Below, one piece after another: positions 3,001-54,349 of a stretch of 64,000 bases of DNA; within the stretch, counting starts at the first letter, position 1; every line of letters begins with the position of its first letter. Source of the stretch: Candidatus Poribacteria bacterium (lineage in GTDB: Bacteria > Poribacteria > WGA-4E > WGA-3G). A model generated the notes under the pieces. That model saw only the letters and a program-made list of their open reading frames with translations, did not search any database and had not been told where the DNA came from. A program made the translations under genes and the position numbers. The stretch is from the NCBI GenBank assembly GCA_963663765.2, contig CAXXUA010000013.1, forward strand, positions 608,001-672,000. The letters are read 5' to 3'.

Positions 3001-6000
3001 TGGCATCTCCTGTGTCGGTCGCTATAACTGTAACTGTATATGAATTTTTAGTTTCGTAATCAAGAGCTGCTTTTGTTTTTAATTGTCCAGAAGTGCTAAC
3101 AATGTCGAACGATGCAGCATCCGTGCCACCGAGACTGTAGGTTATGGTGTCCTCAGCGTCAGGATCTGTTGCAGTGATGACGTTACCTAAGTTTGTTCCA
3201 GCAGCAGTATTCTCAGCGACTTGACGTGTAATGGAGTCCCCATCGTTAAATACCGGTGCTTCGTTGACGTTTGTAACATTGATCGTGACCGTGATCTCAT
3301 CTTCCAACGTGCCATCAGAGACAGTAACTATTACCTCATAAGATGTCTTCGTTTCATAGTTTAGTGCCGCGCTGGTTTTCAACTGACCTGTGTCACCATC
3401 AATAGCAAATGAGGAGGCATCAGTGCCACTGAGTAGATAAGCAAGATTTTCACTATCTTCGTCAGTCGCAGCAATCGCAGTGCCGATGTTGGCATCAGCA
3501 GCAGTATTCTCTGCAATTGTCCGTGTAGCCTCGTCACCATCAGTGAACACAGGTGCAATGTTTGAAGGCGTCTCGTCTAAATCCCTGACATTGATTGTCA
3601 CTGCAATGGAATCCGTTAGACTGCCATCTGATACCGTAATGGTTACAGAATAGGATGTTTTTGTTTCATAATCAAGTGCAGCCTTTGTTTTCAATTGTCC
3701 GGTTGTGGATTCAATGTCAAATGATGCACCGTTCGTGCCACCGAGGGTGTAAGTTAATGTCGTGCTGTCAACATCCGTTGCTGACACAGCACTGCCGATG
3801 TTGATGCCAGAACCTGCATTTTCTGCGATTGTGCGGGTTGTGCTGGTGCCAGCAGTAAAAACGGGTGCTTCGTTGACGTTAGTTATGTTGATTGTCACAG
3901 ATATGCTGGAACTGCCGCCTTGATCATCGGAGACAGTGATGGTGACTGAATATGAAGATTTTGTTTCGTAATCCAGTGCTGCACTCGTTCGGAGTTGACC
4001 TGAACTACTATCAATACTAAAGGAAGCGGCATCTGCTCCACTCATCCTATAAGATAAAGTGTCATCATCAGCATCTGTCGCAGATACAACACTACCGATG
4101 TTCACATTAGAGGCAGTATTTTCAGCAATGGTACGTGTTGTGCTACTCCCATTTGTGAAGACGGGTGCGTTGTTGACAGGACTTTCGTCGATATCGTTGA
4201 CATTAATTGTGACCGTGATACTTGCACTCCCACCATTCCCATCTGAAACAGTGATGGTGACTGAATATGAATCTTTCGTTTCATAATCCAGTGCTGCACT
4301 CGTTCGGAGTTGTCCTGAACTACTATCAATACTAAAGGAAGTGGCATCTGTGCCACTCAGACTGTAGGACAACGTATCATCATCAGCATCCGTCGCAGAA
4401 ACAGCAGTGCTAATGTCTACACCAGATTTGGTATTCTCATCTACAGAGCGCGTAGTGGTGCTCCCATCTGTGAATGTGGGTGCTGTGTTCGTCGCTTCAT
4501 CAACATCCGTAACATTGATAGTGACACCAATAGTATCACTTCCTCCCTTTCCATCGGAGACGTTGATGGTGACTGAATAGGAAGATTTTGTTTCATAGTC
4601 AAGTGCTGCGCTTGTTCGCAATTGTCCGTTTGTGCTTCCAATGCTAAATGAGGATGCATCTGTTCCACCCAGACTATAAGTTAAAGTGTCATTGTCCTCA
4701 TCTGTCGCAGAAACAGCACTGCCAATGTCTACACCGGAACCCGTATTCTCTGCGACTGAACGGGATGCAGTCTCACCTTCTGTGAAGACAGGTGCTGTGT
4801 TCGTCGCTTCATCAACATCCGTGATGTTGATAGTGACAGCAATAGTATCACTTCCGCCTTTTCTATCTGAGACAGTGATAGTGACTGAATAGGATGACTT
4901 TGTTTCATAGTCAAGTGCTGTGCTTGTTCGCAATTGACCATTTGTACTTCCAATACTGAATGAAGCGGCATCTGTGCCCCCCAGACTGTAAGTTAAAGTG
5001 TCATTGTCAACATCCGTCGCAGAAACTGCACTGCCAATGTCTACACCGGAACCCGTATTCTCATCTATGGAGCGCGTAGTGGTGCTCCCATCTGTGAAGA
5101 CAGGTGCTGTGTTCGTCGCTTCATCAACATCCGTAACATTGATAGTGACAGCAATAGTATCACTTCCTCCCTTTCCATCGGAGACGTTGATAGTGACTGA
5201 ATAGGATGACTTTGTTTCATAATCCAATGCTGCACTCGTTCGGAGTTGTCCTGAACTACTATCAATACTAAAGGAAGTGGCATCTGTGCCACTCAGACTG
5301 TAAGATAACGTATCATCATCAGCATCCATCGCAGAAACAGCAGTGCCAATGTCTACACCTGACCCCGTATTCTCATCTACGGAGCGCGTAGTGGTGCTCC
5401 CATCTGTAAAGACAGGTGCTGTGTTCGTCGTTTCATCAACATCCGTGATGTTGATAGTGATGTTGATAGTATCGCTTCCCCCTTTTCCATCGGAGACAGT
5501 GATGGTGACTGAATAGGAAGATTTTGTTTCATAGTCAAGTGCTGCGTTCGTTCGCAATTGTCCATTTGCACTGCCAATACTAAACGATGATGCATCTGAG
5601 CCACTTAGACTATAAGTTAAATTGTCGTTGTCCTCATCCGTCGCAGAAACAGCGCTGCCAATGTCTACACCGGAACCCGTATTCTCTGCGACTGAACGGG
5701 ATGCAGTCTCCCCTTCTGTAAAGATCGGTGCCGTATTCAGTGCTTCTTCAACATCTGAGACATTTATTGTTACGGTTATTGTGTCGCTTCCATCGTTATC
5801 ATCAGAGACGGTAATAATCACTGAATAGGAGGTCCTTGTTTCATAGTCAAGTGCTGTGTTCGTTCGCAATTGACCATTTGTGCTAACAATACTGAATGAA
5901 GTCGCATCAGAACCACCGAGAATGTATGTTAAAGTATCATCGTCAGCATCTGTTGCTGATACAGGATTACCGATGTTAACACCAGACCCTGTATTTTCAG

Positions 6001-8554
6001 CAACTGTTCGTGTAGTGGTGCTACCTTCTGTGAAAACAGGAGCGTTATTCGGGGGATCAGTATCCTCCCCATCCGTTGTTTCATCGGTCGTTGGTGTTTC
6101 TACGATGTCGGTAATGTTGATCGTAACATCAATACTGTCCGTAAGGCTGCCATCAGAAACAGTGATCGTCACTGAATAGGAGTCCTTTGTTTCGTAATCA
6201 AGCGCGACCTTTGTCTGTAGTTGCCCCGATGTGCTATTTATGCTAAAGGATGCTGCATCGGTGCCTGAAACCGTATAAGTTAAGGTATCATTGTTAGCAT
6301 CTGTGGCAGTGACAGCGGAACCAATGTCTGATCCTGCATCAGTATTCTCGGCGATAGAACGGGTTGTATTTATCCCTTCGGTGAATACAGGTGGTGTATT
6401 GACTGCGCTGTAGATTTCCAAAGGTAACTCGTTAGATTTTGCCAGGGCATACCCAATATGGTTCGTCGGTAAATTGGGTAATGTGCCAAAGTCTACTGTC
6501 ACCGCAGCATAAATATCGGGTGTGCGGTTCACCATCAAGGGTTGGCTGGCTATACTTCCTCTCGGGATTGTAATAGATGTGGCATTATTATTTAAACTGC
6601 CGTTTGCAACAGTGATCGGCAGCACAATATCAAAAGGTGCACCTGTTGATATGACAACTTTGATTTGGTTTTCTCCAACTTTTAGAATTGTCATATTCAG
6701 GGATAATGGATCAACTGTATTGCCGCTCAAATCCAGTGATGTCAAGGATGATAAACCCTCAAATACACCATCAGGTAGACTTTGTAATTGGTTATTTGAT
6801 AGATTCAGTGTTGATAGTGACAGTAATCCTTCAAAATCATCTGCTTGGAGAGCACTTATTGAAGCACTGCTAAGATCTAAGGCAGTAATGGTAGCAAGGT
6901 CCGTTTCTGATATGTTTCGGCAATCTTCTATACCTTGTAGCGCGGATACTATTGCATCACTAACCTGTATTGTGCGGTTGCAGACAGTAGATTTTGCAAG
7001 GATATATCCGAAATGGTTAGGAGGAATGCTTGGTAAGTTACCGATATTTACATCTGTCGTTGTCGCAACAAAAGATCCACTTGTCACACTTCCTTTCGGT
7101 ATTGTGATATTAGCGACACTTGCCTCATTGATAGGTAACACGATGTCGAATGGCGCGCCTGTAGGAATGATGGCTCTGAACTCATTATCAGACACTTGTT
7201 GCAATGACACCATCAACGGCATTGGTGCAACAAGGTTGCCACCTAAACGAATTGAAGTGAGCGAGGTAAGATCTTCAAAGATACGAGCAGGCAGGTTACG
7301 CAACATATTTCCATATAGGTTTAAACTTGTTAAACTTGTCAATCCAGAAAAATCACCGCTTTTGAGTTCTGAAATACCAGCAGACCGAAGGTTTAGAGAA
7401 GTAATCGTTGCAAGATGCGTATCTGTTACATCTGCTGCTACACTTACATCCGGGATTGCTGCAACGATGGCATCACGCACCTTTGGTGTCCGATCACTGA
7501 CAGCAAGCATCGTTGAAACCGCTGGCGTGTCATCTAAATCAATGACAATTATGATGACAGAAATAGTTGATGTGAGTGTTTCATCGGAAGCATTTACAGA
7601 TACAATATAGATTCGTTTTGTTTCATAGTCTAATGCATTTTTTGTTTTCAGTTGTCCAGTTTCACTATCAATACTAAAAGAATCTGCGTTTAAACCACTA
7701 AGCGTGTATGCTAATGTATCGTTTTCAGTATCAGTCGCAGCAACGGCATTGCCGATATTCACATCAGCTGCACTGTTTTCGGACACTGAACGCAAAGTAA
7801 TATTGCCATCAGCAAAGGTCGGTGCGGTGTTTTCAGGTGTTTCAGGTTGTGTGGGAGTCTCTGGTTCCACTGGTGTTTCAGGTGTTGTGCTGGTGGCACT
7901 GATCACTTCAAGCGGCAATGTATCAGATTTAGAAAGAACATAACCGTAGTGATGACTCGGCAAACTGGATAGCGTTCCGATATTAGCTGTTACTGCTGCA
8001 GTCGTTCCTGCAGCGCGAGTTACCGTGACAGCAGTACTTTCTACTGCACCTTTAGAAATGGTCAGAGATGTCGTATTCCCGCTAATGCTGCCATTGGTAG
8101 GACTGATGGGAATACTCATAGTGAACGGTGCGCCTGTCGCGACAACGGCTTTAATCTGATCCTCTCCAACTTTTTCCAATAAGATGGTAATTTGCATAGG
8201 ATCAACAGTGTTCCCACCTAATCGCAGAGTTGTTAGTGCCGTGAGTCCTTCAAAGATTTTATCCGGCAGACTGCTCAGTTCGTTGCCATATAAGTTCAGG
8301 TTAGTCAGACCAGTCATCCCAGAAAAATCACCCGATTTTAGTGCTGTAATACCTTTGGAACGTAAGTTTAGATTTGTGATTGCGGAAAGTTGTGCATCGG
8401 TCACATCCGCTGCGGAATTGACGCCCGCGGCAGTCACGATGGCATCACGCACTTCTGTTGTGCGATCAACCACCGGAGTGATTTCCGCAAAACTTGTTAT
8501 TTGTAGACCGAAAATCAATAAAACTGAGAACAAAACAGGTACTCTTTGCATCAT
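2..8554 (-). CDS. Giant secreted LRR + cadherin-repeat protein, paralogue 1 (partial, C-terminus beyond window start)
   Basis: Missing from the ORF track because it has no stop in the window. ATG at 8554 with GAAAGG RBS gives MMQRVPVLFSVLLIFGLQITSFAEITPV (signal peptide). The frame at the window edge matches (YSLEGTDASSLSIVST). DNA is nearly identical to 8640..18296 over most of its length. Internal continuity was only spot-checked. Confidence 0.9.
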   Translation of the reverse strand, partial: MMQRVPVLFSVLLIFGLQITSFAEITPVVDRTTEVRDAIVTAAGVNSAADVTDAQLSAITNLNLRSKGITALKSGDFSGMTGLTNLNLYGNELSSLPDKIFEGLTALTTLRLGGNTVDPMQITILLEKVGEDQIKAVVATGAPFTMSIPISPTNGSISGNTTSLTISKGAVESTAVTVTRAAGTTAAVTANIGTLSSLPSHHYGYVLSKSDTLPLEVISATSTTPETPVEPETPTQPETPENTAPTFADGNITLRSVSENSAADVNIGNAVAATDTENDTLAYTLSGLNADSFSIDSETGQLKTKNALDYETKRIYIVSVNASDETLTSTISVIIIVIDLDDTPAVSTMLAVSDRTPKVRDAIVAAIPDVSVAADVTDTHLATITSLNLRSAGISELKSGDFSGLTSLTSLNLYGNMLRNLPARIFEDLTSLTSIRLGGNLVAPMPLMVSLQQVSDNEFRAIIPTGAPFDIVLPINEASVANITIPKGSVTSGSFVATTTDVNIGNLPSIPPNHFGYILAKSTVCNRTIQVSDAIVSALQGIEDCRNISETDLATITALDLSSASISALQADDFEGLLSLSTLNLSNNQLQSLPDGVFEGLSSLTSLDLSGNTVDPLSLNMTILKVGENQIKVVISTGAPFDIVLPITVANGSLNNNATSITIPRGSIASQPLMVNRTPDIYAAVTVDFGTLPNLPTNHIGYALAKSNELPLEIYSAVNTPPVFTEGINTTRSIAENTDAGSDIGSAVTATDANNDTLTYTVSGTDAASFSINSTSGQLQTKVALDYETKDSYSVTITVSDGSLTDSIDVTINITDIVETPTTDETTDGEDTDPPNNAPVFTEGSTTTRTVAENTGSGVNIGNPVSATDADDDTLTYILGGSDATSFSIVSTNGQLRTNTALDYETRTSYSVIITVSDDNDGSDTITVTINVSDVEEALNTAPIFTEGETASRSVAENTGSGVDIGSAVSATDEDNDNLTYSLSGSDASSFSIGSANGQLRTNAALDYETKSSYSVTITVSDGKGGSDTINITINITDVDETTNTAPVFTDGSTTTRSVDENTGSGVDIGTAVSAMDADDDTLSYSLSGTDATSFSIDSSSGQLRTSAALDYETKSSYSVTINVSDGKGGSDTIAVTINVTDVDEATNTAPVFTDGSTTTRSIDENTGSGVDIGSAVSATDVDNDTLTYSLGGTDAASFSIGSTNGQLRTSTALDYETKSSYSVTITVSDRKGGSDTIAVTINITDVDEATNTAPVFTEGETASRSVAENTGSGVDIGSAVSATDEDNDTLTYSLGGTDASSFSIGSTNGQLRTSAALDYETKSSYSVTINVSDGKGGSDTIGVTINVTDVDEATNTAPTFTDGSTTTRSVDENTKSGVDISTAVSATDADDDTLSYSLSGTDATSFSIDSSSGQLRTSAALDYETKDSYSVTITVSDGNGGSASITVTINVNDIDESPVNNAPVFTNGSSTTRTIAENTASNVNIGSVVSATDADDDTLSYRMSGADAASFSIDSSSGQLRTSAALDYETKSSYSVTITVSDDQGGSSSISVTINITNVNEAPVFTAGTSTTRTIAENAGSGINIGSAVSATDVDSTTLTYTLGGTNGASFDIESTTGQLKTKAALDYETKTSYSVTITVSDGSLTDSIAVTINVRDLDETPSNIAPVFTDGDEATRTIAENTAADANIGTAIAATDEDSENLAYLLSGTDASSFAIDGDTGQLKTSAALNYETKTSYEVIVTVSDGTLEDEITVTINVTNVNEAPVFNDGDSITRQVAENTAAGTNLGNVITATDPDAEDTITYSLGGTDAASFDIVSTSGQLKTKAALDYETKNSYTVTVIATDTGDATDTITVTINVTDVDENRAPVFTDGESAERSIAENTGSGVNIGAAVAATDPDTDDTLEYSLGGTDRSSFSLGSTNGQLRTKAALDYETKNAYSVTVSVSDGNGGTDSITVTIKVTDVDENRAPVFTDGESAERSIAENTGAGVNIGTAITATDADDDTLEYSLGGTDAASFEIGSTNGQIRTKAALDYETKNAYSVTVSVSDGNGGTDSITVTIKVTDVDENSAPVFTDGESTERSIAENTLSGVDIGDAVAATDADDDTLDYSLGGTDAASFSINSTSGQIRTNAALDYETKSTYSVTVSVSDGNGGTDSITVTIKVTDVDENTAPVFTDGESTERSIAENTLSGVDIGDAVAATDADDDTLEYSLGGTDAASFSINSTSGQIRTNVALDYETKNTYSVTVSVSDGNGGSDSIAVTIKVTDVDENSNPSFGTAENVTLNVNENTGTGIDIGDKVEATDPDTDDTLEYSLGGTDASSFSIDSTSGQIRTNAALDYETKNTYSVTVSVSDGNGGTDSIPVTINVNDVNENNDPSFGTAESITLNVNENTGTGIDIGDKVEATDPDTDDTLEYSLGGTDAASFSIDSTNGQLRTNAALDHETKDTYSVTVSVSDGNGGTDSIPVTINVTDVNEAPTFTESSPTTRSIAEHTASGQNIGSAVSATDPEGDTLEYTLEGTDASSFSIVSTSGQLQTNAALDYETTTSYSVTVKVTDDTLTNTIAVTINVTDVNENTAPSFSESSFSYRISDIANASVGDSIGDKVTATDADEDTLSYSLGGDDAALFDIDSSSGQLKITQSLIDHTSSAYSIKVIATDPDSATAEISGTIFVTRVSQQVTNNPPVFDDGESTTRSVAENTASGQNIGEPVAATDDDTDDTLTYTLEGTDAASFSIVSTSGQLQTSVTLNYETKTSYSVTVKVTDDSGASNDSDTIAVTINVNDVDEVINNPPIFADDSTTLSIPENTPSGENIGSPITATDDDEGDTLTYSLEGTDASSLSIVST

Positions 8555-8639
8555 AAATTTCCTTTCATCAATCAAGATACTTTCATTAAATCTTGTTGTA
8601 AATGTAAGACTGGAAGACACCAAAGTTCAATTTTGTTGT

Positions 8640-11600
8640 CTATTTCAGTATTAACATTTTCCGCGTTGCTGTAAAATCGTTTGCCTTGAATGTGGTGAAA
8701 TATACACCTGCTGCGACTTTCTCACCGTTTGCGTTTCTACCATCCCAATATGCAGCACGTTTGCGGTCAGTATAATATCCAGCGGTTTTATGTCCCAAAT
8801 CCAACTTCCGAATGACGACACCACGCATATCGTAGATCGTCAAGGAAACATCGCCTGCTTCAGATAACTGGTAGGGTATCCATGTTTCTGGATTGAAGGG
8901 ATTGGGATAGTTTGAAAGTAGTGCCGTCTCATCTGGTATGAGTTGGGTGTTGGTCGGGGCACCACTAACTTCAGGAATAAGTTCCAATGGTAGGTTAGCA
9001 TTATTTATGTCTAAATAATATCCATGATTATCTAAAGATCTTTCGTAAAAAACAATGTCAATAGTGACGGTAACAGCATCAGTTGTATCATCCAATCGTA
9101 CCACACTTAAAGCATCGGTTTCTGCTTCACCAACTGGTATTCTTATTTGAGGTCTTCTATTGTCTAAAGTGACTATGTATCCATATTCTTGGTCTGGATG
9201 CACTTTACCATTACTGATTGGGACATTAATACGGTTATTATTAATTGGCATACCTGTCGGACAAACAACCTTGAACTGTCCTTCTGCGACTTTTTCCAGT
9301 CCCACCTTGATGGGGACACTGTCTGGTTGCGGATCTTCACCTTGAAAACCACATTGAAATAGAGTTAGTTCTGTGAGACCTACAAATATGCCATCGGGGA
9401 ATGAGGTTAAGTTGTTCCTGTTCAAAAAAAGTTTGGTTAAGTTGGTTAATTCACTAAATAAACCTGACGGTAGAGAACTGATATTATTATTTTCCAGAAC
9501 AAGTGTTGTCAGCTTCGAGTTATTGTCAAAGATATTACCTGGTAAGGAAGTCAAACTGTTATATCTTAAAGATAGGGATGTTAAATTCGTCAATTCTTCA
9601 AATATATCAGCAGACAAAGTTGTCAATTCATTACCTTCTAAAGATAGTGTTTCTAAATTCGTTAGTTCGTCAAAAACATCAGAATTTAAGGAACTAATAG
9701 AATTATATGACAAACCGAGGTATTCTAATTGTGTGTTATTGTCAAATACATCATCTGGTAATGAAGTAATTCCGTTTGAACCAATGGCAAGGGTTTTCAA
9801 CAATGTGAGTTCATCAAATATTCCATCTGGTAATGATGTGGTACCGTTAGAATAGTAGAGTAGTTTAATGAGTGAAATGGTATTATCAAACAATCCATCT
9901 GGCAAGGTAGATATATTATGATCATACATTTCAAGATTTTCCAGAGAAGTGAGGTCGTCAAAAATCCCAGCTCTAAGTGATGTTAATTGATTGGTTGTTT
10001 CAGATGCGAAAGTGGCTAAGTAAAGCGTTTTGAGGGATGTAAGTCCGTCAAAAACACCACCCGATAGGGTCGTGAACTCATTCAGATTCAAGTCAAGTAA
10101 TTCCAATGATGTGAGTTGGTCAAAGATCCCGTCTGGTAATGAAGTCAGTCCATTGTATCCAAGCTCAAGTTTTGTCAGTGATGTGAGACTATCAAATATA
10201 CCGTCAGGCAGTGTTGTAAAAGCGTTTTCGTCGTCATGAAAGAAGTTATTAAATGATAAATCAAGCTCGGTTAGTGAAGTAAGACCGTCAAAGATATCAA
10301 CAGGTAACGAACTGAATTTATTACTGCTTATATTTAATAATGTTAAACCCGTGAGTCCATCAAAATCACCTGATATTAGACCTGTTAAGTTCTTATTTCT
10401 AATATCCAATGTAGTGATTGCAGCAAGCTGTGATTCTGTCACATTTTCAGCTGCATCTACACCTTCAATAGCATCTACAATCGCATCTCGAACCGCACCT
10501 GTACGGTTACTGACAGGTGTAATGGAGTCTGATTCTGTTACGTCATTTACATTGATTGTAACAGCAATCGTATCACTTTCATTACTTGCACCACTATCAT
10601 CAGTGACCTTTACAGTCACCGAATAGGAAGTCTTTGTCTCATAGTCCAACGTTACTCTGGTTTGCAGCTGTCCACTTGTGCTAACAATACTGAACGATGA
10701 TGCATCTGTGCCTTCAAGTGTATAGGTCAATGTGTCATCAGTATCATCGTCTGTAGCAGCGACAGGTTCACCGATATTTTGTCCTGATGCGGTATTTTCT
10801 GCGACGGATCGCGTTGTGCTTTCACCATCATCAAATACGGGTGGGTTGTTTGTGTTCTGCTGTGAGACACGGGTAACAAATATCGTTCCTGAAATTTCAG
10901 CAGTTGCACTATCAGGATCCGTAGCAATCACCTTGATTGAATAAGCGGAACTGGTATGATCAATAAGAGACTGTGTGATTTTCAGTTGTCCAGAACTGCT
11001 ATCAATATCAAACTTAGCTGCATCATCACCCCCGAGACTGTAGGATAACGTATCCTCATCAGCGTCGGTCGCAGTAACCTTATCACCGATGCTATCGCCT
11101 ACAGAAGCGTTTGCAATGTCTGATATTCTGTATGCGAAACTACTTTCTGAAAATGAGGGTGCGGTGTTCTCACTGACATCTGTAACGTTGATGGTTACGG
11201 CAATTGTGTTGGTCAAGGAATCATCAGTTACTTTGACCGTTACGGAATATGAAGTTGTTGTTTCATAATCTAATGCAGCGTTTGTTTGGAGCTGTCCACT
11301 CGTGCTGACAATAGAAAATGATGATGCATCTGTGCCTTCAAGTGTGTATTCTAAGGTGTCACCTTCGGGGTCTGTCGCGGAAACTGCACTGCCGATATTC
11401 TGTGCAGAAGCAGTATGTTCTGCTATAGACCGGGTGGTTGGTGAAGCCTCTGTGAACGATGGTGCTTCGTTGACATCCGTAACATTGATGGTGACAGCGA
11501 TAGAATCTGTTCCACCATTTCCATCGGAGACCGATACCGTCACGGAATATGTGTCTTTGGTTTCATAGTCCAGTGCAGCATTTGTTCTTATCTGTCCAGA

Positions 11601-14600
11601 TGTGCTGTCAATACTGAAAGAGCTTGCATCTGTTCCACCGAGTGAGTATTCCAGTGTATCATCGGTATCGGGGTCGGTTGCTTCCACTTTATCTCCGATG
11701 TCAATACCGGTACCTGTATTTTCATTTACATTTAGGGTCACGCTTTCAGCCGTGCCAAACGAAGGGTTGCGGTTCTCATCAACATCGGTGACTTTGATGG
11801 TGACAGCGATTGAATCTGATCCACCATTGCCATCAGACACAGATACGGTTACGGAATATGTGCTTTTTGTTTCATAGTCGAGTGCAGCTTTTGTTCTGAG
11901 TTGTCCGTTTGTGCTGCCGATTTCAAATGAAGCGGCATCTGTGCCACCGAGTGAATATTCCAGTGTATCGTCGGTGTCAGGGTCAGTAGCGGCTACTGCT
12001 GTGCCGATGTTGACACCTGAACCCGTATTTTCAGCGATGGATCGTTCCGTGCTTTCACCATCTGTGAAAACAGGTGCGGTGTTCTCATCAACATCGGTGA
12101 CTTTGATGGCAACGGTAATGGAATCCGTTCCATCATTTCCATCCGAGACAGATACCGTCACGGAATATGTGTTTTTGGTTTCATAGTCGAGCGCAGCATT
12201 TGTTCTTATTTGTCCAGATGTGCTATTAATACTAAAGGAAGCCGCGTCTGTGCCGCCAAGACTGTAGTCTAATGTGTCATCATCCGCATCTGTAGCAGCG
12301 ACAGCATCACCGATATCTACACCTGAGAGTGTATTTTCAGCGATGGATCGTTCCGTGCTTTCACCATCTGTGAATACAGGTGCGGTGTTCTCATCAACAT
12401 CGGTGACTTTGATGGTAACGGTAATGGAATCCTTTCCATCATTTCCATCCGAGACAGAAACGGTTACGGAATATGTGTTTTTTGTTTCATAGTCCAGGGC
12501 AGCATTTGTTCTGATTTGTCCGTTTGTGCTGCCAATGTCAAATGAAGCGGCATCTGTGCCACCAAGACTGTAATTCAATGTGTCATCATCTGCATCTGTA
12601 GCGGTTATTGCTGTGCCGATGTTGACACCAGCCCCCGTGTTTTCAGCGATGGATCGTTCCGTGCTTTCACCATCTGTGAAAACAGGTGCTCGGTTCTCAT
12701 CAACATCGGTGACTTTGATGGTAACGGTAATGGAATCCGTTCCACCATTTCCATCAGAGACAGATACCGTAACAGAATATGCGTTTTTTGTTTCATAGTC
12801 CAGGGCAGTTTTTGTTCTGAGTTGTCCGTTTGTGCTGCCAATGTCAAATGAAGCGGCATCTGTCCCACCAAGACTGTAGTTCAATGTGTCATCATCTGCA
12901 TCTGTAGCGGAGACAGCATTTCCGATGTTGACACCAGCCCCCGTGTTTTCAGCGATGGATCGTTCCGCGCTTTCGCCATCTGTGAATACAGGTGCTCGGT
13001 TCTCGTCTACATCTGTAACATTGATGGTGACAGTGATTGTATCGGTGGTATCACCTGTGTCGGTCGCTATAACTGTAACTGTATATGAATTTTTAGTTTC
13101 GTAATCAAGAGCTGCTTTTGTTTTTAATTGTCCAGAAGTGCTAACAATGTTGAACGATGCAGCATCCGTGCCACCGAGACTGTAGGTTATGGTGTCCTCA
13201 GCGTCAGGATCTGTTGCAGTTATGACGTTACCTAAGTTTGTGCCAGCAGCAGTATTCTCAGCGACTTGACGTGTAATGGAGTCCCCATCGTTAAATACTG
13301 GTGCTTCGTTGACGTTTGTAACATTGATCGTGACGTTGATCTCATCTTCAAGCGTGCCATCAGAGACAGTAACTATTACCTCATAAGAAGTCTTCGTTTC
13401 ATAGTTTAGTGCCGTGCTGGTTTTCAACTGACCTGTGTCACCATCAATAGCAAATGAGGAGGCATCAGTGCCACTGAGTAGATATGCAAGATTTTCACTA
13501 TCCGCATCAGTCGCAGCAATTGCAGTGCCGATGTTGGTATTCGCTGCAGTATTCTCTGCAATTGTCCGTGTTGCTTCGTCACCATCAGTGAACACAGGTG
13601 CGACGTTTGAAGGTGTCTCGTCTAAATCCCTGACATTGATTGTCACCGCAATGGAATCCGTTAGACTGCCATCTGATACCGTAATGGTTACAGAATAGGA
13701 TGTTTTTGTTTCATAATCAAGTGCAGCCTTTGTTTTCAATTGTCCGGTTCTGGATTCAATGTCAAATGATGCACCGTTCGTGCCACCGAGGGTGTAAGTT
13801 AATGTCGTGCTGTCAACATCCGTTGCTGACACAGCACTGCCGATGTTGATGCCAGAACCTGCATTTTCTGCGATTGTGCGGGTTGTGCTGGTGCCAGCAG
13901 TAAAAATAGGTGCTTCGTTGACATTCGTAACGTTAATCGTTACGTTGATGCTGGAACTGCCACCTTGATCATCTGAGACAGTGATGGTGACTGAATATGA
14001 AGATTTTGTTTCGTAATCCAGTGCTGTACTCGTTCGGAGTTGACCTGAACTACTATCAATACTAAAGGAAGCGGCATCTATGCCACTGATCCTGTAAGAT
14101 AACGTATCATCATCAGCGTCTGTTGCAGCGACAGCGCTGCCGACGTTCACATTAGATGCAGTATTTTCAGCAATGGTACGTGTTGTGCTACTGCCATTTG
14201 TGAAGACGGGTGCGTTGTTGGCAGGACTTTCGTCGATATCGTTGACATTAATTGTGACCGTGATACTTGCACTCCCACCATTCCCATCTGAGACAGTGAT
14301 TGTGACTGAATAGGAATCTTTCGTTTCATAATCCAATGCTGCACTCGTTCGGAGTTGACCTGAACTACTATCAATACTAAAGGAAGCGGCATCTGTTCCA
14401 CTCAGACTGTAGGACAACGTGTCATTGTCAGCATCCGTCGCAGAAACAGCACTGCTAATATCTACACCAGATTTGGTATTCTCATCTACGGTGCGCGTTG
14501 TGCTTGTCCCATCTGTGAATGTAGGTGCTGTGTTCGTCGCTTCATCAACATCCGTAACATTGATAGTGATGTTTATAGTATCACTTCCTCCCTTTCCATC

Positions 14601-17600
14601 GGAGACGTTGATGGTGACTGAATAGGAAGATTTTGTTTCATAGTCAAGTGCTGCACTTGTTCGCAATTGTCCGTTTGTGCTTCCAATACTAAATGAGGAT
14701 GCATCTGAGCCACTTAGACTATAAGTTAAAGTGTCGTTGTCCTCATCTGTCGCAGAAACAGCGCTGCCAATGTCTACACCGGAACCCGTATTCTCTGCGA
14801 CTGAACGGGATGCAGTCTCACCTTCTGTGAAGACAGGTGCTGTGTTCGTCGCTTCATCAACATCCGTGATGTTGATAGTGACAGCAATAGTATCACTTCC
14901 GCCTTTTCTATCTGAGACAGTGATAGTGACTGAATAGGATGACTTTGTTTCATAGTCAAGTGCTGTGCTTGTTCGCAATTGTCCGTTTGTGCTTCCAATA
15001 CTAAATGAGGATGCATCTGAGCCACTTAGACTATAAGTTAAAGTGTCGTTGTCCTCATCTGTCGCAGAAACAGCGCTGCCAATGTCTACACCGGAACCCG
15101 TATTCTCTGCGACTGAACGGGATGCAGTCTCACCTTCTGTGAAGACAGGTGCTGTGTTCGTCGCTTCATCAACATCCGTAACATTGATAGTGACACCAAT
15201 AGTATCACTTCCCCCTTTTCCATCGGAGACAGTGATGGTGACTGAATAGGAAGATTTTGTTTCATAGTCAAGTGCTGCACTTGTTCGCAATTGTCCGTTT
15301 GTGCTTCCAATACTAAATGAGGATGCATCTGAGCCACTTAGACTATAAGTTAAAGTGTCGTTGTCCTCATCCGTTGCAGAAACAGCGCTGCCAATGTCTA
15401 CACCGGAACCCGTATTCTCAGCGACTGAACGGGATGCAGTCTCACCTTCTGTAAAGAGCGGTGCCGTATTCACTGCTTCTTCAACATCCGAGACATTTAT
15501 TGTTACGGTTATTGTGTCGCTTCCATCGTTATCATCAGAGACGGTAATAATCACTGAATAGGAGGTCCTTGTTTCATAGTCGAGGGCTGTGTTCGTTCGC
15601 AATTGACCATTTGTGCTACCAATACTGAATGAAGTCGCATCAGAACCACCGAGAATGTATGTTAAAGTATCATCGTCAGCATCTGTTGCTGATACAGGAT
15701 TACCGATATTGACACCAGAACCTGTATTTTCAGCAACTGTTCGTGTAGTGGTGCTACCTTCTGTGAAAACAGGAGCGTTATTCGGGGTATCAGTATCCTC
15801 CACATCCGTAGTGGGTGCTTCTACAACGTCGGTAATGTTGATTGTAACATCAATGCTGTCCGTAAGGCTGCTATCAGAAACAGTGATCGTCACTGAATAG
15901 GAGTCCTTTGTTTCGTAATCAAGCGCGACCTTTGTCTGTAGTTGTCCCGATGTGCTATTTATGCTAAAGGATGCTGCATCGGTGCCAGAAACCGTATAAG
16001 TTAAGGTATCATTGTTAGCATCTGTGGCAGTGACAGCGGAACCAATGTCTGATCCTGCATCAGTATTCTCGGCGATAGAACGGGTTGTATTTATCCCTTC
16101 GGTGAATATAGGTGGTGTATTGACTGCGCTGAAGATTTCCAGAGGTAACTCGTTAGATTCTGCCAAGGCATACCCATTATGGTTCGTCGGTAAATTGGGT
16201 AATGTGCCAAAGTCTACTGTCACCGCATCATAAGTGTCGGGTGTGCGGTTCACCATCAAGGGTTGACTTTCTACGCTGCCTTTCAAAATTGTGATAGTGG
16301 TTGCATTATTATTCAAACTGCCGTTTGCAACAGTGATCGGCAGCACAATATCAAAAGGTGCACCTGTTGATATGACAACTTTGATTTGGTTTTCTCCAAC
16401 TTTTAGAATTGTCATATTCAGGGAAAATGGATCAACTGTATTGCCGCTCAAATCCAGTGATGTCAAAGATGTCAAACCTTCAAAAATCCCATCAGGTAGA
16501 CTTTGTAATTGGTTATTTGATAGATTCAGTGTTGATAGTGACAGTAATCCTTCAAAATCACCCGCTTGGAGCGCACTTATTGAAGCACTGCTAAGATCTA
16601 AGGCAGTAACGGTAGCAAGGTCCGCTTCTGATATGTTCCGGCAATCTTCTATACCTTGTAGCGCGGATACTATTACATCACTAACCTGTATTGTGCGGTT
16701 GCAGACAGTGGATTTAGCAAGGATATATCCGAAATGGTTAGGAGGAAGGCTTGGTAAGTTACCGATATTTACATCTGTCGTTGTCGCAACAAAAGATCCA
16801 CTTGTCACACTTCCTTTCGGTATTGTGATATTAGCGACACTTGCCTCATTGATCGGTAACACAATGTTGAATGGCGCGCCTGTAGGAATGATGGCTCTGA
16901 ACTCATTATCAGACACTTGTTGCAATGACACCATCAACGGCATTGGTGCAACAAGGTTGCCACCTAAACGAATTGAAGTGAGCGAGGTGAGATCTTCAAA
17001 GATACGAACAGGCAGGTTACGCAACATATTTCCATATAGGTTTAAACTTGTTAAACCTGTCAATCCAGAAAAATCACCGCTATTGAGTTCTGAAATACCA
17101 GCAGACCGAAGGTTTAGAGAAGTAATCGTTGCAAGATGCGTATCTGTTACATCTGCTGCTACACTTACATCCGGGATTGCTGCAACGATGGCATCACGCA
17201 CCTTTGGTGTCCGATCACTGACAGCAAGCATCGTTGAAACCGCTGGCGTGTCATCTAAATCAATGACATTAATGATGACAGAAATAGTTGATGTGAGTGT
17301 TTCATCGGAAGCATTGACAGAAACAATATAGATTCGTTTTGTTTCATAGTCTAATGCATTTTTTGTTTTCAGTTGTCCAGTGTCACTATCAATACTAAAA
17401 GAATCTGCGTTTAAACCACTAAGCGTGTATGCTAATGTATCGTTTTCAGTATCAGTTGCAGAAACGGCATTCCCGATATTCACATTAGCCGCCGTGTTTT
17501 CCGACACTGAACGCAAAGTAATATTGCCATCAGCAAAGGTCGGTGCGGTGTTTTCAGGTGTTTCAGGTTGTGTGGGAGTCTCTGGTTCCACTGGTGTTTC

Positions 17601-18296
17601 AGGTGTTGTGCTGGTGGCACTGATCACTTCAATGGGCAATGTATCAGATTTAGAAAGAACATAACCGTAGTGATGACTCGGCAAACTGGATAGCGTTCCG
17701 ATATTAGCTGTTACTGCTGCAGTCGTTCCTGCAGCGCGAGTTACCGTGACAGCAGTACTTTCTACTGCACCTTTAGAAATGGTCAGAGATGTCATATTCC
17801 CGCTAATGCTACCATTGGTAGGACTGATGGGAATACTCATAGTGAACGGTGCGCCTGTCGCGACAACGGCTTTAATCTGATCCTCTCCAACTTTTTCCAA
17901 TAAGATGGTAATTTGCATAGGATCAACAGTGTTCCCACCTAATCGCAGAGTTGTTAGTGCCGTGAGTCCTTCAAAGATACCATCGGGCAGACTGCTCAGT
18001 TCGTTGCCATATAAGTTCAGGTTAGTCAGACCAGTCATCCCAGAAAAATCTCCCGATTTTAGTGCTGTAATACCTTTTGACCGTAGGTTTAGTTCTGTAA
18101 TAGCTGTAAGGTCGTCTTCGGTGACATCTGCTGCGGAATTGACGCCCGCGGCAGTCACGATAGCAGCCTGTACCTCTGTTGTTCGCTCACTTACTGGTGT
18201 AATCTCCGCTGAACTTGTAACTGGTAAACCGAAGAAAACTAATGAACAAAGTAAAACAGATAGGACGGAACTCAGATTCTTGAGTTGTGTTTTCAT
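8640..18296 (-). CDS. Giant secreted LRR + cadherin-repeat protein, paralogue 2 (3218 aa), FlgD-Ig/T9SS-type-A-like C-terminal domain
   Basis: Signal peptide; about 19 cadherin repeats (xENT...ATDxD...LDYE...DxNxxPxF); three short and one long 24-aa LRR block (LxxLPxGIFxxLxxL); C-terminal NYPNPFNPETWIPYQL...RKMLILK. Confidence 0.95.
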   Translation of the reverse strand: MKTQLKNLSSVLSVLLCSLVFFGLPVTSSAEITPVSERTTEVQAAIVTAAGVNSAADVTEDDLTAITELNLRSKGITALKSGDFSGMTGLTNLNLYGNELSSLPDGIFEGLTALTTLRLGGNTVDPMQITILLEKVGEDQIKAVVATGAPFTMSIPISPTNGSISGNMTSLTISKGAVESTAVTVTRAAGTTAAVTANIGTLSSLPSHHYGYVLSKSDTLPIEVISATSTTPETPVEPETPTQPETPENTAPTFADGNITLRSVSENTAANVNIGNAVSATDTENDTLAYTLSGLNADSFSIDSDTGQLKTKNALDYETKRIYIVSVNASDETLTSTISVIINVIDLDDTPAVSTMLAVSDRTPKVRDAIVAAIPDVSVAADVTDTHLATITSLNLRSAGISELNSGDFSGLTGLTSLNLYGNMLRNLPVRIFEDLTSLTSIRLGGNLVAPMPLMVSLQQVSDNEFRAIIPTGAPFNIVLPINEASVANITIPKGSVTSGSFVATTTDVNIGNLPSLPPNHFGYILAKSTVCNRTIQVSDVIVSALQGIEDCRNISEADLATVTALDLSSASISALQAGDFEGLLSLSTLNLSNNQLQSLPDGIFEGLTSLTSLDLSGNTVDPFSLNMTILKVGENQIKVVISTGAPFDIVLPITVANGSLNNNATTITILKGSVESQPLMVNRTPDTYDAVTVDFGTLPNLPTNHNGYALAESNELPLEIFSAVNTPPIFTEGINTTRSIAENTDAGSDIGSAVTATDANNDTLTYTVSGTDAASFSINSTSGQLQTKVALDYETKDSYSVTITVSDSSLTDSIDVTINITDVVEAPTTDVEDTDTPNNAPVFTEGSTTTRTVAENTGSGVNIGNPVSATDADDDTLTYILGGSDATSFSIGSTNGQLRTNTALDYETRTSYSVIITVSDDNDGSDTITVTINVSDVEEAVNTAPLFTEGETASRSVAENTGSGVDIGSAVSATDEDNDTLTYSLSGSDASSFSIGSTNGQLRTSAALDYETKSSYSVTITVSDGKGGSDTIGVTINVTDVDEATNTAPVFTEGETASRSVAENTGSGVDIGSAVSATDEDNDTLTYSLSGSDASSFSIGSTNGQLRTSTALDYETKSSYSVTITVSDRKGGSDTIAVTINITDVDEATNTAPVFTEGETASRSVAENTGSGVDIGSAVSATDEDNDTLTYSLSGSDASSFSIGSTNGQLRTSAALDYETKSSYSVTINVSDGKGGSDTINITINVTDVDEATNTAPTFTDGTSTTRTVDENTKSGVDISSAVSATDADNDTLSYSLSGTDAASFSIDSSSGQLRTSAALDYETKDSYSVTITVSDGNGGSASITVTINVNDIDESPANNAPVFTNGSSTTRTIAENTASNVNVGSAVAATDADDDTLSYRISGIDAASFSIDSSSGQLRTSTALDYETKSSYSVTITVSDDQGGSSSINVTINVTNVNEAPIFTAGTSTTRTIAENAGSGINIGSAVSATDVDSTTLTYTLGGTNGASFDIESRTGQLKTKAALDYETKTSYSVTITVSDGSLTDSIAVTINVRDLDETPSNVAPVFTDGDEATRTIAENTAANTNIGTAIAATDADSENLAYLLSGTDASSFAIDGDTGQLKTSTALNYETKTSYEVIVTVSDGTLEDEINVTINVTNVNEAPVFNDGDSITRQVAENTAAGTNLGNVITATDPDAEDTITYSLGGTDAASFNIVSTSGQLKTKAALDYETKNSYTVTVIATDTGDTTDTITVTINVTDVDENRAPVFTDGESAERSIAENTGAGVNIGNAVSATDADDDTLNYSLGGTDAASFDIGSTNGQLRTKTALDYETKNAYSVTVSVSDGNGGTDSITVTIKVTDVDENRAPVFTDGESTERSIAENTGAGVNIGTAITATDADDDTLNYSLGGTDAASFDIGSTNGQIRTNAALDYETKNTYSVTVSVSDGNDGKDSITVTIKVTDVDENTAPVFTDGESTERSIAENTLSGVDIGDAVAATDADDDTLDYSLGGTDAASFSINSTSGQIRTNAALDYETKNTYSVTVSVSDGNDGTDSITVAIKVTDVDENTAPVFTDGESTERSIAENTGSGVNIGTAVAATDPDTDDTLEYSLGGTDAASFEIGSTNGQLRTKAALDYETKSTYSVTVSVSDGNGGSDSIAVTIKVTDVDENRNPSFGTAESVTLNVNENTGTGIDIGDKVEATDPDTDDTLEYSLGGTDASSFSIDSTSGQIRTNAALDYETKDTYSVTVSVSDGNGGTDSIAVTINVTDVNEAPSFTEASPTTRSIAEHTASAQNIGSAVSATDPEGDTLEYTLEGTDASSFSIVSTSGQLQTNAALDYETTTSYSVTVKVTDDSLTNTIAVTINVTDVSENTAPSFSESSFAYRISDIANASVGDSIGDKVTATDADEDTLSYSLGGDDAAKFDIDSSSGQLKITQSLIDHTSSAYSIKVIATDPDSATAEISGTIFVTRVSQQNTNNPPVFDDGESTTRSVAENTASGQNIGEPVAATDDDTDDTLTYTLEGTDASSFSIVSTSGQLQTRVTLDYETKTSYSVTVKVTDDSGASNESDTIAVTINVNDVTESDSITPVSNRTGAVRDAIVDAIEGVDAAENVTESQLAAITTLDIRNKNLTGLISGDFDGLTGLTLLNISSNKFSSLPVDIFDGLTSLTELDLSFNNFFHDDENAFTTLPDGIFDSLTSLTKLELGYNGLTSLPDGIFDQLTSLELLDLNLNEFTTLSGGVFDGLTSLKTLYLATFASETTNQLTSLRAGIFDDLTSLENLEMYDHNISTLPDGLFDNTISLIKLLYYSNGTTSLPDGIFDELTLLKTLAIGSNGITSLPDDVFDNNTQLEYLGLSYNSISSLNSDVFDELTNLETLSLEGNELTTLSADIFEELTNLTSLSLRYNSLTSLPGNIFDNNSKLTTLVLENNNISSLPSGLFSELTNLTKLFLNRNNLTSFPDGIFVGLTELTLFQCGFQGEDPQPDSVPIKVGLEKVAEGQFKVVCPTGMPINNNRINVPISNGKVHPDQEYGYIVTLDNRRPQIRIPVGEAETDALSVVRLDDTTDAVTVTIDIVFYERSLDNHGYYLDINNANLPLELIPEVSGAPTNTQLIPDETALLSNYPNPFNPETWIPYQLSEAGDVSLTIYDMRGVVIRKLDLGHKTAGYYTDRKRAAYWDGRNANGEKVAAGVYFTTFKANDFTATRKMLILK

Positions 18297-18313: not shown

Positions 18314-19181
18314 CAGGGTTATTCAGTTTTAGTAGTTTTTGCAGATATTTATAACATTCGTGAATTAGATGCGTAGGTCGGGTAGAGCGTATGCGAAACC
18401 CGTAGGTGTCAACTTAAGAAAATATTGTTTGCATTTTCTCTTGTGGGAGGGGTTTTCAACCCCGATTTGAGCGGAAATGCACTAAAAAATCGGGGTTGAA
18501 AACCCCTCCCACAAGAGGTAAAATCCTTAAGTTGACACCTATGGGTAGAGCGTATACGAAACCCGACATGTATTGATTGTTTGCATTTTCTCTTGTGGGA
18601 GGGGTTTTCAACCCCGATTTGAGCGGAAATGCACTAAAAAATCGGGGTTGAAAACCCCTCCCACAAGAGGTAAAATCCTTAAGTTGACACCTATGGGTAG
18701 AGCGTATGCGAAACCCGACATGTATTGATTGTTTGCATTTTCTCTTGTGGGAGGGGTTTTCAACCCCGATTTGAGCGGAAATGCACTAAAAAATCGGGGT
18801 TGAAAACCCCTCCCACAAGAGGTAAAATCCTTAAGTTGACACCTATGGGTAGAGCGTATGCGAAACCCATAGGTGTCAACTTAAGAAAAAAGTGTTGGCA
18901 TATTCTCTTGTGGGAGGGGTTTGTAACCCCGATTTGAGTGGAAATGAACAAAAAATCGGGGTTGCAAACCCCTCCCACAAGAGGTCAGAATCCTTAAGTT
19001 GACACCTATGGGTAGAGCGATAGCGAAACCCTACATGTATTGATTGTAGTTGTCATGTCGGGTTTCGCTATCGCTCTACCCGGGGAATGCCTAAATGGCA
19101 TTCATACCGTTGATTTGGACCTACGATATAAACTTTAAGTAACACCCATCAACTGATAATTCTTAAAACTAAATAACCCTG
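18314..19181. mobile_element. 868-bp composite MITE with CAGGGTTATTYAGTTTTA terminal inverted repeats
   Basis: TIRs start at 18314 and end at 19181; 9-bp target duplication CCTTTATAA (18305-18313 / 19182-19190); the homologous intergenic region 29095-29284 lacks the insert. Confidence 0.9.
18401..19010. repeat. Array of 143-bp CATAGG-TIR MITEs (18401-18543, 18868-19010) plus a 152-bp tandem triplication, separated by 20-bp REP hairpin copies
   Basis: TIR CATAGGTGTCAACTTAAG; flanking direct repeat GGTAGAGCGTATGCGAAACC; CTCTTGTGGGAGGGG recurs at 18438, 18590 and 18742. Confidence 0.88.
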
Positions 19182-40679: not shown

Positions 40680-41191
40680 GGGTGTGTAAAGTTTTTGCAC
40701 AAACTGCACATTCTCCATTGTAGAGCGGGGTCTCTGTGCACCGCCGCATAGGTGTCAACTTAAGGATTCTGACCTCTTGTGGGAGGGGTTTGCAACCCCG
40801 ATTTTATGTTCATTTCCACCCAAATCGGGGTTACAAACCCCTCCCACAAGAGAATATGCCAACACTTTTTTCTTAAGTTGACACCTATGGGGTCTCTGTG
40901 CACCGCCGCAACTGATTAAATGAGAGATTGCGGGCACAGAGACCCATAGGTGTCAATATAAGGAAATATTGTTAATATCAACCATACTCTTCAGTCCCGT
41001 AGGGACGATATGTTTATAGAAAACAAGTACCCTTCCCAGTTCTTTAGTCCCGTAGGGACGATATGTTTATTCTTCTATGTCGTTCCTACGGAACTCAAGA
41101 GAGGGTGATTACACCTATCTATAAACATTGCGTCCCTACGTGACTAAAGAGAACAAAAGTTTGTACCTCTGTGCAAAAACTTTACACACCC
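40680..41191. mobile_element. 512-bp MITE with IS256-like ends
   Basis: Perfect 22-bp TIR GGGTGTGTAAAGTTTTTGCACA; 9-bp duplication ATACCGTTG (40671-79 / 41192-200). Family assignment inferred from GG-start TIR and 9-bp duplication. Confidence 0.88.
40747..40889. mobile_element. 143-bp CATAGG-TIR MITE
   Basis: Near reverse complement of 18868-19010; 19-bp duplication GGGTCTCTGTGCACCGCCG. Confidence 0.9.
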
Positions 41192-44678: not shown

Positions 44679-45030
44679 GTAGGTGTGGCTTCCTAACCGC
44701 ACCATAAGCGTCAATTTAAGGATTTTGACCTCTTGTGGGAGGGGTTTTCAACCCCGATTTTACGCGCTTTTCCTCTCAAATCGGGGTTGAAAACCCCTCC
44801 CACAAGAGAAACACCAACACTTTTTTCTTAAATTGACGCCTATGGTGTGGCTTCCTAACCGCACCATAAGCGTCAATTTAAGGATTTTGACCTCTTGTGG
44901 GAGGGGTTTTCAACCCCGATTTTACGCGCTTTTCCTCTCAAATCGGGGTTGAAAACCCCTCCCACAAGAGAAACACCAACACTTTTTTCTTAAATTGACG
45001 CCTATGGTGTGGCTTCCTAACCGCACCTAC
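44679..45030. mobile_element. Two tandem 142-bp CATAGG-family MITEs (44703-44844, 44865-45006) inside a GTAG...CTAC REP
   Basis: 20-bp GTGTGGCTTCCTAACCGCAC present three times (44683, 44845, 45007). Confidence 0.92.
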
Positions 45031-53675: not shown

Positions 53676-53912
53676 CTTCGTTTATAATTTTGCGAAGACG
53701 CAAAAGGGTATATTAACTATATACACTTCACCCTAAATTCTTTAGTTTTTTTTTGCGAAGGTGTCGGCATATCGGTTTTAGGCACACATAAACTCTTGCT
53801 GTCACTCTGGTGAAATCTCAATATTAACGACTTGTGCCGGTTAATTGAGGGGTGTGCATAAATAAATTTGTTTTAAGCTTAAGTCGTCCGTCGGGTAGAA
53901 CGCGGTGAAACC

Positions 53913-54099
53913 CATAGTTGTCAATTTAGGGATTTATTTCAAGGTATTGTTCAGTTTAGCACAACCAACGCCGCCGTCTTGATTGTAGGGGCGCGGGTCT
54001 CTGTGCCCGCCCATTGTTTTCTTTTTGAATACATGTCGGGGTACAGAGACCCCGCCCTACAATGTGTGACGGGATTTGTCGCTTAAATTGACACCTATG
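53913..54099. mobile_element. 187-bp CATAGG-family MITE with a different internal REP doublet
   Basis: Ends CATAGTTGTCAATTTAGG / CTTAAATTGACACCTATG; 19-bp duplication GGTAGAACGCRGTGAAACC. Confidence 0.85.
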
Positions 54100-54349
54100 G
54101 GTAGAACGCAGTGAAACCCGACACAATCGTATCCAGTCTTGCATGTCGGGTTTCGCAAGTTCTACCCGACCTTCAAAATCTTGTCCTTTTTTGCACTAAG
54201 AATGGTGTCCATCCACATGAAGAAGATTGTGACGTGTGTCACCATCTATGTTGATCCGCCAATTATGTATGCACACCCCTTAGTTATTTCAGAGTGTGAG
54301 GTGAGGATATGCGTAAATAGTATATCGGTAAGCTGATTGTCAATAACAT

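Follow-up and report, generated by a model that had tools for sequence, protein, structure and literature searches.

The short TIR-bounded elements of this Candidatus Poribacteria genome are probably MITEs of an IS4-family IS whose transposase would join its ends to target DNA about two helical turns apart and read a short half-site at each joint, with no hairpin needed in the target. Judging from sequence comparisons, we give this reading a probability of about 0.78. The window (the whole 64-kb stretch of DNA that was analysed) holds six such elements; the family was followed through the rest of the genome and into congeneric genomes, where full-length IS copies with the same TIRs were found.

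Elements in the window

The TIR pattern CATAGGTGTCAACTTAAG, allowing up to three mismatches, matched 15 times in the window compared with 0.08 matches expected from shuffles. Reading of the sequence together with a repeat finder delimited five elements of 141-143 bp and one of 187 bp, with direct repeats of 19-20 bp around each. An earlier note on this DNA had described six complete TIR-bounded elements between repeats of this length; all six were found where it had placed them, and the repeats were confirmed around every one (19-22 bp under another definition of the element ends).

Two 143-bp MITEs lie close together on the reverse strand. The first (18401-18543), complete with both TIRs, is preceded by the left copy of a 20-bp target duplication, GGTAGAGCGTATGCGAAACC (18381-18400), inside a REP of the form GTCGGGT..ACCCGAC, and is followed by the right copy with one mismatch (18544-18563). 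Next to it is a rearranged stretch, also on the reverse strand, of two 152-bp tandem units (18564-18867; spacing 152 and 152 in the repeat finder), each made of 15 bp of REP flank, a MITE without its first ~30 bp and a REP copy; from 18544 to 18867 there are truncated MITE units only and no complete elements. The second complete MITE (18868-19010) is followed by the REP copy GGTAGAGCGATAGCGAAACC (19011-19030), which has an inverted partner REP at 19057-19082.

A complete 143-bp MITE on the forward strand (40747-40889) separates the left (40728-40746) and right (40890-40908) copies of a 19-bp duplication, GGGTCTCTGTGCACCGCCG; the left copy is one arm of an inverted REP pair and has no centred hairpin. 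A solo TIR-like end, CATAGGTGTCAATATAAG (40945-40962), adjoins the inverted REP partner and marks the start of another repeat family, present in ~17 copies whose ends resemble AATATGTGTCAACATAAG; the opposite end of this family could not be located.

Near 44.7 kb, three copies of a 20-bp duplication, GTGTGGCTTCCTAACCGCAC (44683-44702, 44845-44864 and 45007-45026), alternate with two 142-bp MITEs on the forward strand (44703-44844 and 44865-45006), which are 100% identical and form copies 1 and 2 of a 162-bp tandem unit. A congeneric genome has a single copy of the repeat and no MITE at this position. The sixth element (53913-54099, 187 bp) differs in its interior and represents a second non-autonomous family that shares the TIRs; it lies between the left copy of a 19-bp duplication, GGTAGAACGCGGTGAAACC (53894-53912), and a right copy with one mismatch (54100-54118). 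The window also contains blocks of 7.7-8.8 kb (~186-8940 and 10540-18233) that are repeated within it and just upstream on the same contig; the self-BLAST intervals on contig 13 are 595061-604423, 608186-616940 and 618540-626233.

Genome-wide family and target duplications

The assembly of this genome comprises 6.35 Mb in 15 contigs and is 97.8% complete. It contains 444 TIR matches, among them 161 adjacent +/- pairs, of which 114 have a length of 141-144 bp. Repeats of 18-21 bp flank 110 of the 161 pairs (one of 18, 60 of 19, 47 of 20 and two of 21 bp), and the other 51 had none at the mismatch limit used. The MITE family claimed from the window is therefore real: it is small, non-coding and multicopy, with 18-bp TIRs, 18-21-bp duplications and ends in common with a 1.45-kb IS. 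Because many targets read G|GG...CC|C, the duplications could also be read as 21-22 bp, with element ends at ATAGG...CCTAT. Sites whose duplication does not start with GG or end with CC assign these bases to the duplicated target rather than to the element, and thus place the ends at CATAGG...CCTATG to one base.

Among the 106 duplications from pairs of at most 700 bp, 38 unrelated sequence clusters were distinguished. By BLAST, the duplicated sequence is unique in the genome in 25 cases, is present in 4-9 copies in 14 and in at least 10 copies in 67. At the 44.7-kb locus, a congeneric genome aligns to both flanks at ~95% identity and carries GGTGTGGCTTCCTAACCGCACC once, compared with three times, together with two MITEs, in the window. 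This orthologous empty site with its single repeat copy shows that the flanking repeats are true target duplications, as unusually long as the earlier note had supposed, and that they do not travel with the element, the outcome that would have told against it.

It is thus extremely improbable that the repeats are part of the mobile unit, that is, that REP-MITE-REP composites are spread by REP/REPIN mobilisation, by recombination or by duplication through a Cas1-type integrase. Such composites would be compatible with arrays that expand by duplication of MITE plus repeat, with a slightly higher MITE identity within a target family (0.897, 293 pairs) than between families (0.876, 1233 pairs), and with Y1-transposase homologues in the genome; the target repeats have stems and GTAG or GTCG heads, and the six Y1 matches are at most RAYT candidates. 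The single repeat copy at the empty site contradicts this explanation, however, and the 38 unrelated repeat clusters and 25 unique duplications argue against it. So do the mixed orientation of MITEs relative to asymmetric REPs (both directions in all seven target families tested) and the IS4-type gene present between the same TIRs in 88 of 88 full-length elements, all of which were collected by a match to that gene.

Copies of the MITE that are 100% identical occur at different loci with different duplications, for example at contig 5, 564861 and 1505933, and further ones at contig 5, 1718053 and 1751842, and at contig 6, 218964; the median identity genome-wide is 88%. Their presence in a genome without a detected cognate enzyme (see below) tells against the preferred reading; the enzyme may have been lost recently, its gene may be missing from the assembly, or it may have been supplied in trans. 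Elements with AACTTAAG ends had 14 duplications of 19 bp and 30 of 20 bp and those with AATTTAAG ends had 38 and 12, respectively; no conclusion follows from this association because TIR variant is confounded with target family. Some TIR-bounded elements of 1.0-1.5 kb with 20-22-bp duplications have interiors consisting of long tandem REP arrays whose units contain GTGCTTTGTAAGCGC (contig 2, 50379-51526; contig 4, 650664-651783; contig 6, 305681-306703; contig 14, 3957-5432). It appears that REP arrays have expanded within elements that are not autonomous.

The cognate IS and its transposase

The TIR was found in all 24 other sampled genomes of the genus, and 3 of 16 genomes from other genera of the order gave a single match each, with one mismatch. 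Sequence taken from inside 20 TIR matches of a complete congeneric genome revealed an element of 1461 bp that has the same TIRs, an ORF of 439 aa and a perfect 20-bp duplication, and a 1445-bp relative without a duplication. The cognate IS are 1.45-1.49 kb long and have one transposase ORF of 438-459 aa each. Of 40 genomes of the genus, 26 have homologues, with as many as 43 matches in a single genome, and public records with relatives of at least 44% identity are all titled Candidatus Poribacteria.

Matches to the IS4-type transposase led to 118 loci, of which 97 had a TIR pair 1400-1520 bp apart, giving 88 unique full-length copies (1445-1512 bp). A duplication of 17-20 bp flanks 69 of these 88 copies (seven of 17, 10 of 18, 23 of 19 and 29 of 20 bp). 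In several of the 19 copies without a repeat, an indel distinguishes the flanking REPs or the REPs are in inverted orientation, as recombination between copies would produce. MITE and IS remain similar past the 18-bp TIR, up to ~35 nt from one terminus and ~22 nt from the opposite one. The long TIR-bounded copies that the earlier note had wished to see sought for the sake of the transposase thus exist, in congeners.

The enzyme that the note had left unidentified is an IS4-family DDE transposase with a Tn5-like fold. Two of the proteins scored 211 and 202 bits against NF033592 (IS4_1; cut-off, 115) and 79 and 68 bits against PF01609 (cut-off, 23). Residues D119, D191, E324, R320 and K331 do not vary among 12 aligned sequences, and the resulting D-72-D-133-E spacing in a single ORF falls within the D(60-110)D(100-150)E definition of IS4. 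Of the Y(2)R(3)E(6)K motif, R320, E324 and K331 are invariant; the tyrosine position is Y in five of the 12 sequences and A, F or T in the other seven, multi-copy lineages among them. This position (residue 317) is Y in distant relatives with an 11-bp duplication. An AlphaFold model built from only 12 sequences had a pLDDT of 80.5, and its five best Foldseek matches in the PDB were Tn5 transposase (E 5e-10 to 5e-9; TM 0.46-0.53), with a chain of the TnsABCD transpososome at rank 15 (E 0.012). A phmmer search of the transposase against PDB sequences gave nothing useful. Membership of the IS30 family was rejected, as NF033563 had no matches in this genome and the gene between the TIRs is of the IS4 type.

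The absence of a cognate enzyme from the window, also claimed earlier, extends to the whole genome. A tblastn search of this genome with two such proteins found no cognate transposase, and the best match to NF033592 in it was 75 bits, below the cut-off of 115. When TIR pairs with flanking repeats were sought under relaxed conditions at distances of 700-6000 bp, all that emerged were MITEs enlarged by REP arrays or by repeats nested in them, and a self-BLAST inventory of other IS families in the genome included none with CATAGG ends. Only one long TIR pair here encloses a transposase (contig 4, 1180654-1182460). It proved to be a MITE with an unrelated Tn5-like IS nested in it, which has its own ends and an 8-9-bp duplication and is therefore not the source of the cognate enzyme. 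This nested IS4-family element (contig 4, 1180689-1182347) has an ORF of 436-470 aa, ends CTTaCTTTTACCCATAAGTT and the 8-9-bp duplication CTTGTGGG; with three to four copies elsewhere in the genome, it illustrates the classical duplication length within this same genome. An IS1595-like gene close to a TIR was also rejected, as it sits in a different repeat.

Target choice

Palindromes were assessed at the 74 MITE sites without a neighbouring element and at 5000 random places. A perfect stem of at least 5 bp within 1 nt of the centre of the duplication was present at 31 of the 74 MITE sites and at 387 of the 5000 random places, and a stem of at least 7 bp at 20 and 36, respectively. The preference for REP palindromes put forward in the earlier note is therefore strong. 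Its further statement that the target is always a REP stem-loop does not hold, since it fails in the window at 40728-40746, where the target is an arm of an inverted pair, and since fewer than half of the sites genome-wide (the 31 of 74 above) have a centred stem.

One explanation for the preference is structure-specific: the transposase would recognize the extruded REP hairpin or cruciform and cut at symmetric points of the stem, so that the duplication is the hairpin. The 5- to 38-fold enrichment of centred palindromes over random places fits this explanation, as do cuts that are symmetric about the dyad on palindromes with a length that follows parity, unlike a rigid ruler, and several genomes in which at least 9 of 13 identical IS copies lie in one REP type. 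We nevertheless consider it unlikely. No centred stem of at least 5 bp exists at 43 of the 74 non-array MITE sites or at 20 of 62 full-length IS sites, yet these have 19-20-bp duplications; the stemless IS sites include unique sequences entered by copies identical to those resident in REPs. Identical IS copies within one genome duplicated 19 bp whether the target was a REP or unique sequence, and copies in another genome duplicated 20 bp in either case. On palindromic targets, 0-9 stem base pairs lie within the duplication and the loops are 1-26 nt, which leaves no fixed distance to the loop or junction, and the length stays at the value of the lineage. With stem and loop variable and length constant, the cuts must be fixed relative to the dyad centre, not to the loop or the base of the stem. 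Tabulation of duplication length against folded position thus bore out a constant length but no fixed position in the stem. Symmetric duplex targets with G...C ends and the REP-centred ISRm22 have, moreover, already been described in the IS4 family, according to the extract available from PMC1525189.

A half-site, GTnG|GK, was recovered at both junctions over all sites, consisting of G-T-n-G in the flank and then G-(G/T)-(G/T). It is common to palindromic and non-palindromic targets: at the 63 non-palindromic sites, G occupied the first duplicated base in 81%, T position -3 in 68% and G position -1 in 68%. Together, the constant 19-20 bp, the stemless sites and the common half-site do not support the proposal that hairpin structure rather than sequence is recognized. 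Duplications on palindromes are 19 bp if the total length of the palindrome is odd and 20 bp if it is even, and one IS lineage made duplications of 18, 19 and 20 bp on a single REP type, from which we conclude that the spacing wobbles by ~1 bp. The strong enrichment of palindromes means that DNA structure may still contribute to capture.

Survival offers another account of the bias, in which insertions occur anywhere that G...C ends lie ~20 bp apart and only the harmless intergenic ones in REPs persist. REPs are abundant intergenic sequence here, the old MITE copies (median identity, 88%) could have been filtered by selection, and other IS families also occur in high-copy short repeats (15 of 64 flanks overall, and 7 of 12 for one family). 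Against this, 67 of 106 MITE duplications have at least 10 genomic copies, compared with those 15 of 64 other-IS flanks in an only roughly matched comparison; the same bias appears in young, identical IS copies; and the half-site, as GTnG, reaches 4 nt beyond the duplication. These observations make selection alone a very unlikely source of the pattern, less likely than structure-specific cutting.

Targets other than REPs were also recorded. An unrelated 1461-bp IS with a 464-aa ORF (contig 2, 165876-167336) ends in GGGGTGTGTAAAGTTTTTG, and this terminus has been struck by the MITE five times (e.g., contig 15, 416830); the termini of a different IS are thus targeted repeatedly. Elements with the TIR also lie inside the internal hairpin of other MITE copies, GGGAGGGGTTTTCAACCC (contig 5, 1800023-1801427; contig 6, 53429-54170), indicating that the palindrome of the MITE itself serves as a target.

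Arrays

The genome contains 16 arrays, 12 with two elements, two with three and two with four. Thirteen of the 22 neighbouring pairs have the same orientation and 97.9-100% identity, compared with the genome-wide median of 88%, which fits duplication of a unit via the 19-20-bp repeats. The remaining nine pairs combine different families, lengths or orientations and are re-insertions into a duplicated copy, or nested events. The CRISPR-like arrays of the earlier note appear to be mostly tandem duplications of the unit of MITE plus duplication.

Proposed mechanism and its meaning

In the reading that we prefer, the MITEs would be internally deleted, non-coding derivatives of the 1.45-1.49-kb IS resident in congeners. 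We infer that a two-fold symmetric transpososome captures duplex target DNA, reads two inverted half-sites, 5'-GTnG|GK, and joins both 3' ends to opposite strands 17-20 bp apart, or about two helical turns; in the rest of the family the distance is about one turn (7-13 bp). Gap repair would then produce the 17-20-bp duplication. The spacing would be set by the enzyme lineage, with modes of 17, 18, 19 or 20 bp, and a wobble of ~1 bp would allow cuts symmetric about the dyad on palindromes. REPs would be struck often because their GTAG-G or GTCG-G heads provide both half-sites at the right distance, and the hairpin itself would not be required for targeting. Unequal recombination or slippage between the 19-20-bp repeats would generate the tandem arrays of MITE plus duplication, with a minority of arrays arising by re-insertion into a duplicated copy.

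A more speculative variant, which we regard as possible although improbable, is that the ruler is matched to the REPs of the host: the spacing of a lineage (17, 18, 19 or 20 bp) would track the length of the resident REP, and capture would proceed via transient extrusion or bending of the palindrome. If so, a DDE transposase would be co-evolving with another selfish repeat and partly reading its shape, and extrusion or bending would allow a Tn5-like pair of active sites to engage two positions separated by two turns.

To our knowledge, Tn5 provides the only solved transpososomes of the IS4 family, and these are consistent with a stagger of 9 bp. Relatives with duplications of 11 bp and of 17-20 bp, all within one lineage with IS231-like ends, form a natural series for studying how a DDE transpososome spaces its strand-transfer sites. 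The family accounts for a large part of the repeat load in these sponge-associated genomes, with the 444 TIR matches of this genome as an example, and its long duplications seed tandem arrays that could pass for CRISPR-like loci. For annotation, 'orphan' MITEs whose enzyme exists only in a sister species are to be expected.

Comparison with known systems

What sets this family apart is the departure of its long duplications from the hallmark of the IS4 family, in combination with IS231-like ends; long duplications and REP-centred targeting are each already known elsewhere. No report of an IS4-family element with ~20-bp duplications was found in a literature search that left most subscription journals outside, and ISfinder may already list one; a search for Poribacteria MITEs or REPs found no report either. 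Direct repeats in the IS4 family are 7-13 bp, and a duplication of about one helix turn is given as its main hallmark in the extract consulted (PMC2266710), compared with 17-20 bp in the IS and 18-21 bp in the MITEs described here.

The ends of the IS, CATAGGYGTCAAYTTAAG, fit the signature CAT-------AA--TAA given for the IS231 subgroup in the same extract (PMC2266710); in CATAGGTGTCAACTTAAG, CAT occupies positions 1-3, AA 11-12 and TAA 15-17. Both groups have one DDE transposase, a symmetric target with G-rich and C-rich ends, and non-autonomous derivatives; MIC231 derivatives of IS231 in the Bacillus cereus group are moved in trans, as excerpted from PMC6199540. The IS231 subgroup differs in its 10-12-bp duplications, compared with 17-20 bp here, and in its protein identities, with many pairs inside the subgroup above 50% compared with ~28% between the present transposases and the B. 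cereus-group elements. The YREK tyrosine has also been lost in several lineages here, and the phylum differs. The target consensus of IS231A is reportedly GGG(N)5CCC, attributed to Hallet in 1994.

The nearest named relatives are two Chloroflexota plasmid elements with 32-33% identity, followed by B. cereus-group IS4-family genes with ~28%; Bacillus contributed 699 of the 1156 matching plasmid records. The Herpetosiphon element (one copy) is 1430 bp long, with ends beginning ATAGGCATCAACC and a 19-21-bp duplication, and the Chlorohelix element (one copy) has ends CATGGTCGTCAATTTAA and the 20-bp duplication GGGTGCTAAAACCAGTGCCC. More distant relatives, with 26-30% identity, share CATAGC... ends and show 11-bp duplications of the GGGN5CCC type; one from a Clostridium record has GGGTTAGACCC and another, from a Prolixibacteraceae record, has GATGATTATCC (one copy each). 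A relative in a Sarcina record had only a 7-bp repeat (one copy), and the ends of the B. cereus IS4-family element were placed only roughly.

A mobile element reportedly described by Calcutt in 1999, IS1630 of Mycoplasma fermentans (IS30 family), is said to duplicate inverted repeats on insertion. In the portion of PMC3317919 consulted, its junction lengths are 16, 23, 25 and 26 bp, and duplication of inverted repeats of 16-26 bp is thus shared with the present family. The transposase of IS1630 is of the IS30 type and its lengths vary, whereas here the transposase is of the IS4 type and the length is fixed per lineage to ~1 bp. ISRm22, an IS4-family element of Sinorhizobium meliloti, is closer in its targeting: within the extract of PMC1525189, all of its copies lie in REPs with the insertion centred on the axis of the palindrome, and GC pairs are noted at the ends of Tn5 duplications. 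It makes 6-bp direct repeats according to the same source (PMC1525189), whereas the present elements duplicate nearly a whole REP (17-20 bp) and also use non-REP sites. The IS1202 group has duplications of 16-28 bp that, according to PMC10132070, arise by no known mechanism. Membership of this family was rejected: it has a TnsB-like transposase and TGT...ACA ends, whereas the present elements have CAT...ATG ends and a Tn5-like fold, with Tn5 as the best fold match.

The arrangement in the window had also been likened to the products of Cas1-Cas2. As an IS4-family DDE transposase is the enzyme, this likeness is one of geometry only, and the enzyme class is unrelated. Cas1-Cas2 and casposons perform staggered joining at both ends of a repeat of ~20-30 bp, which is often palindromic and is duplicated in the process. 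Casposon membership was rejected on the DDE gene present in 88 of 88 full-length elements, all collected via the IS4-type transposase match, and the arrays described here would grow mainly by tandem duplication.
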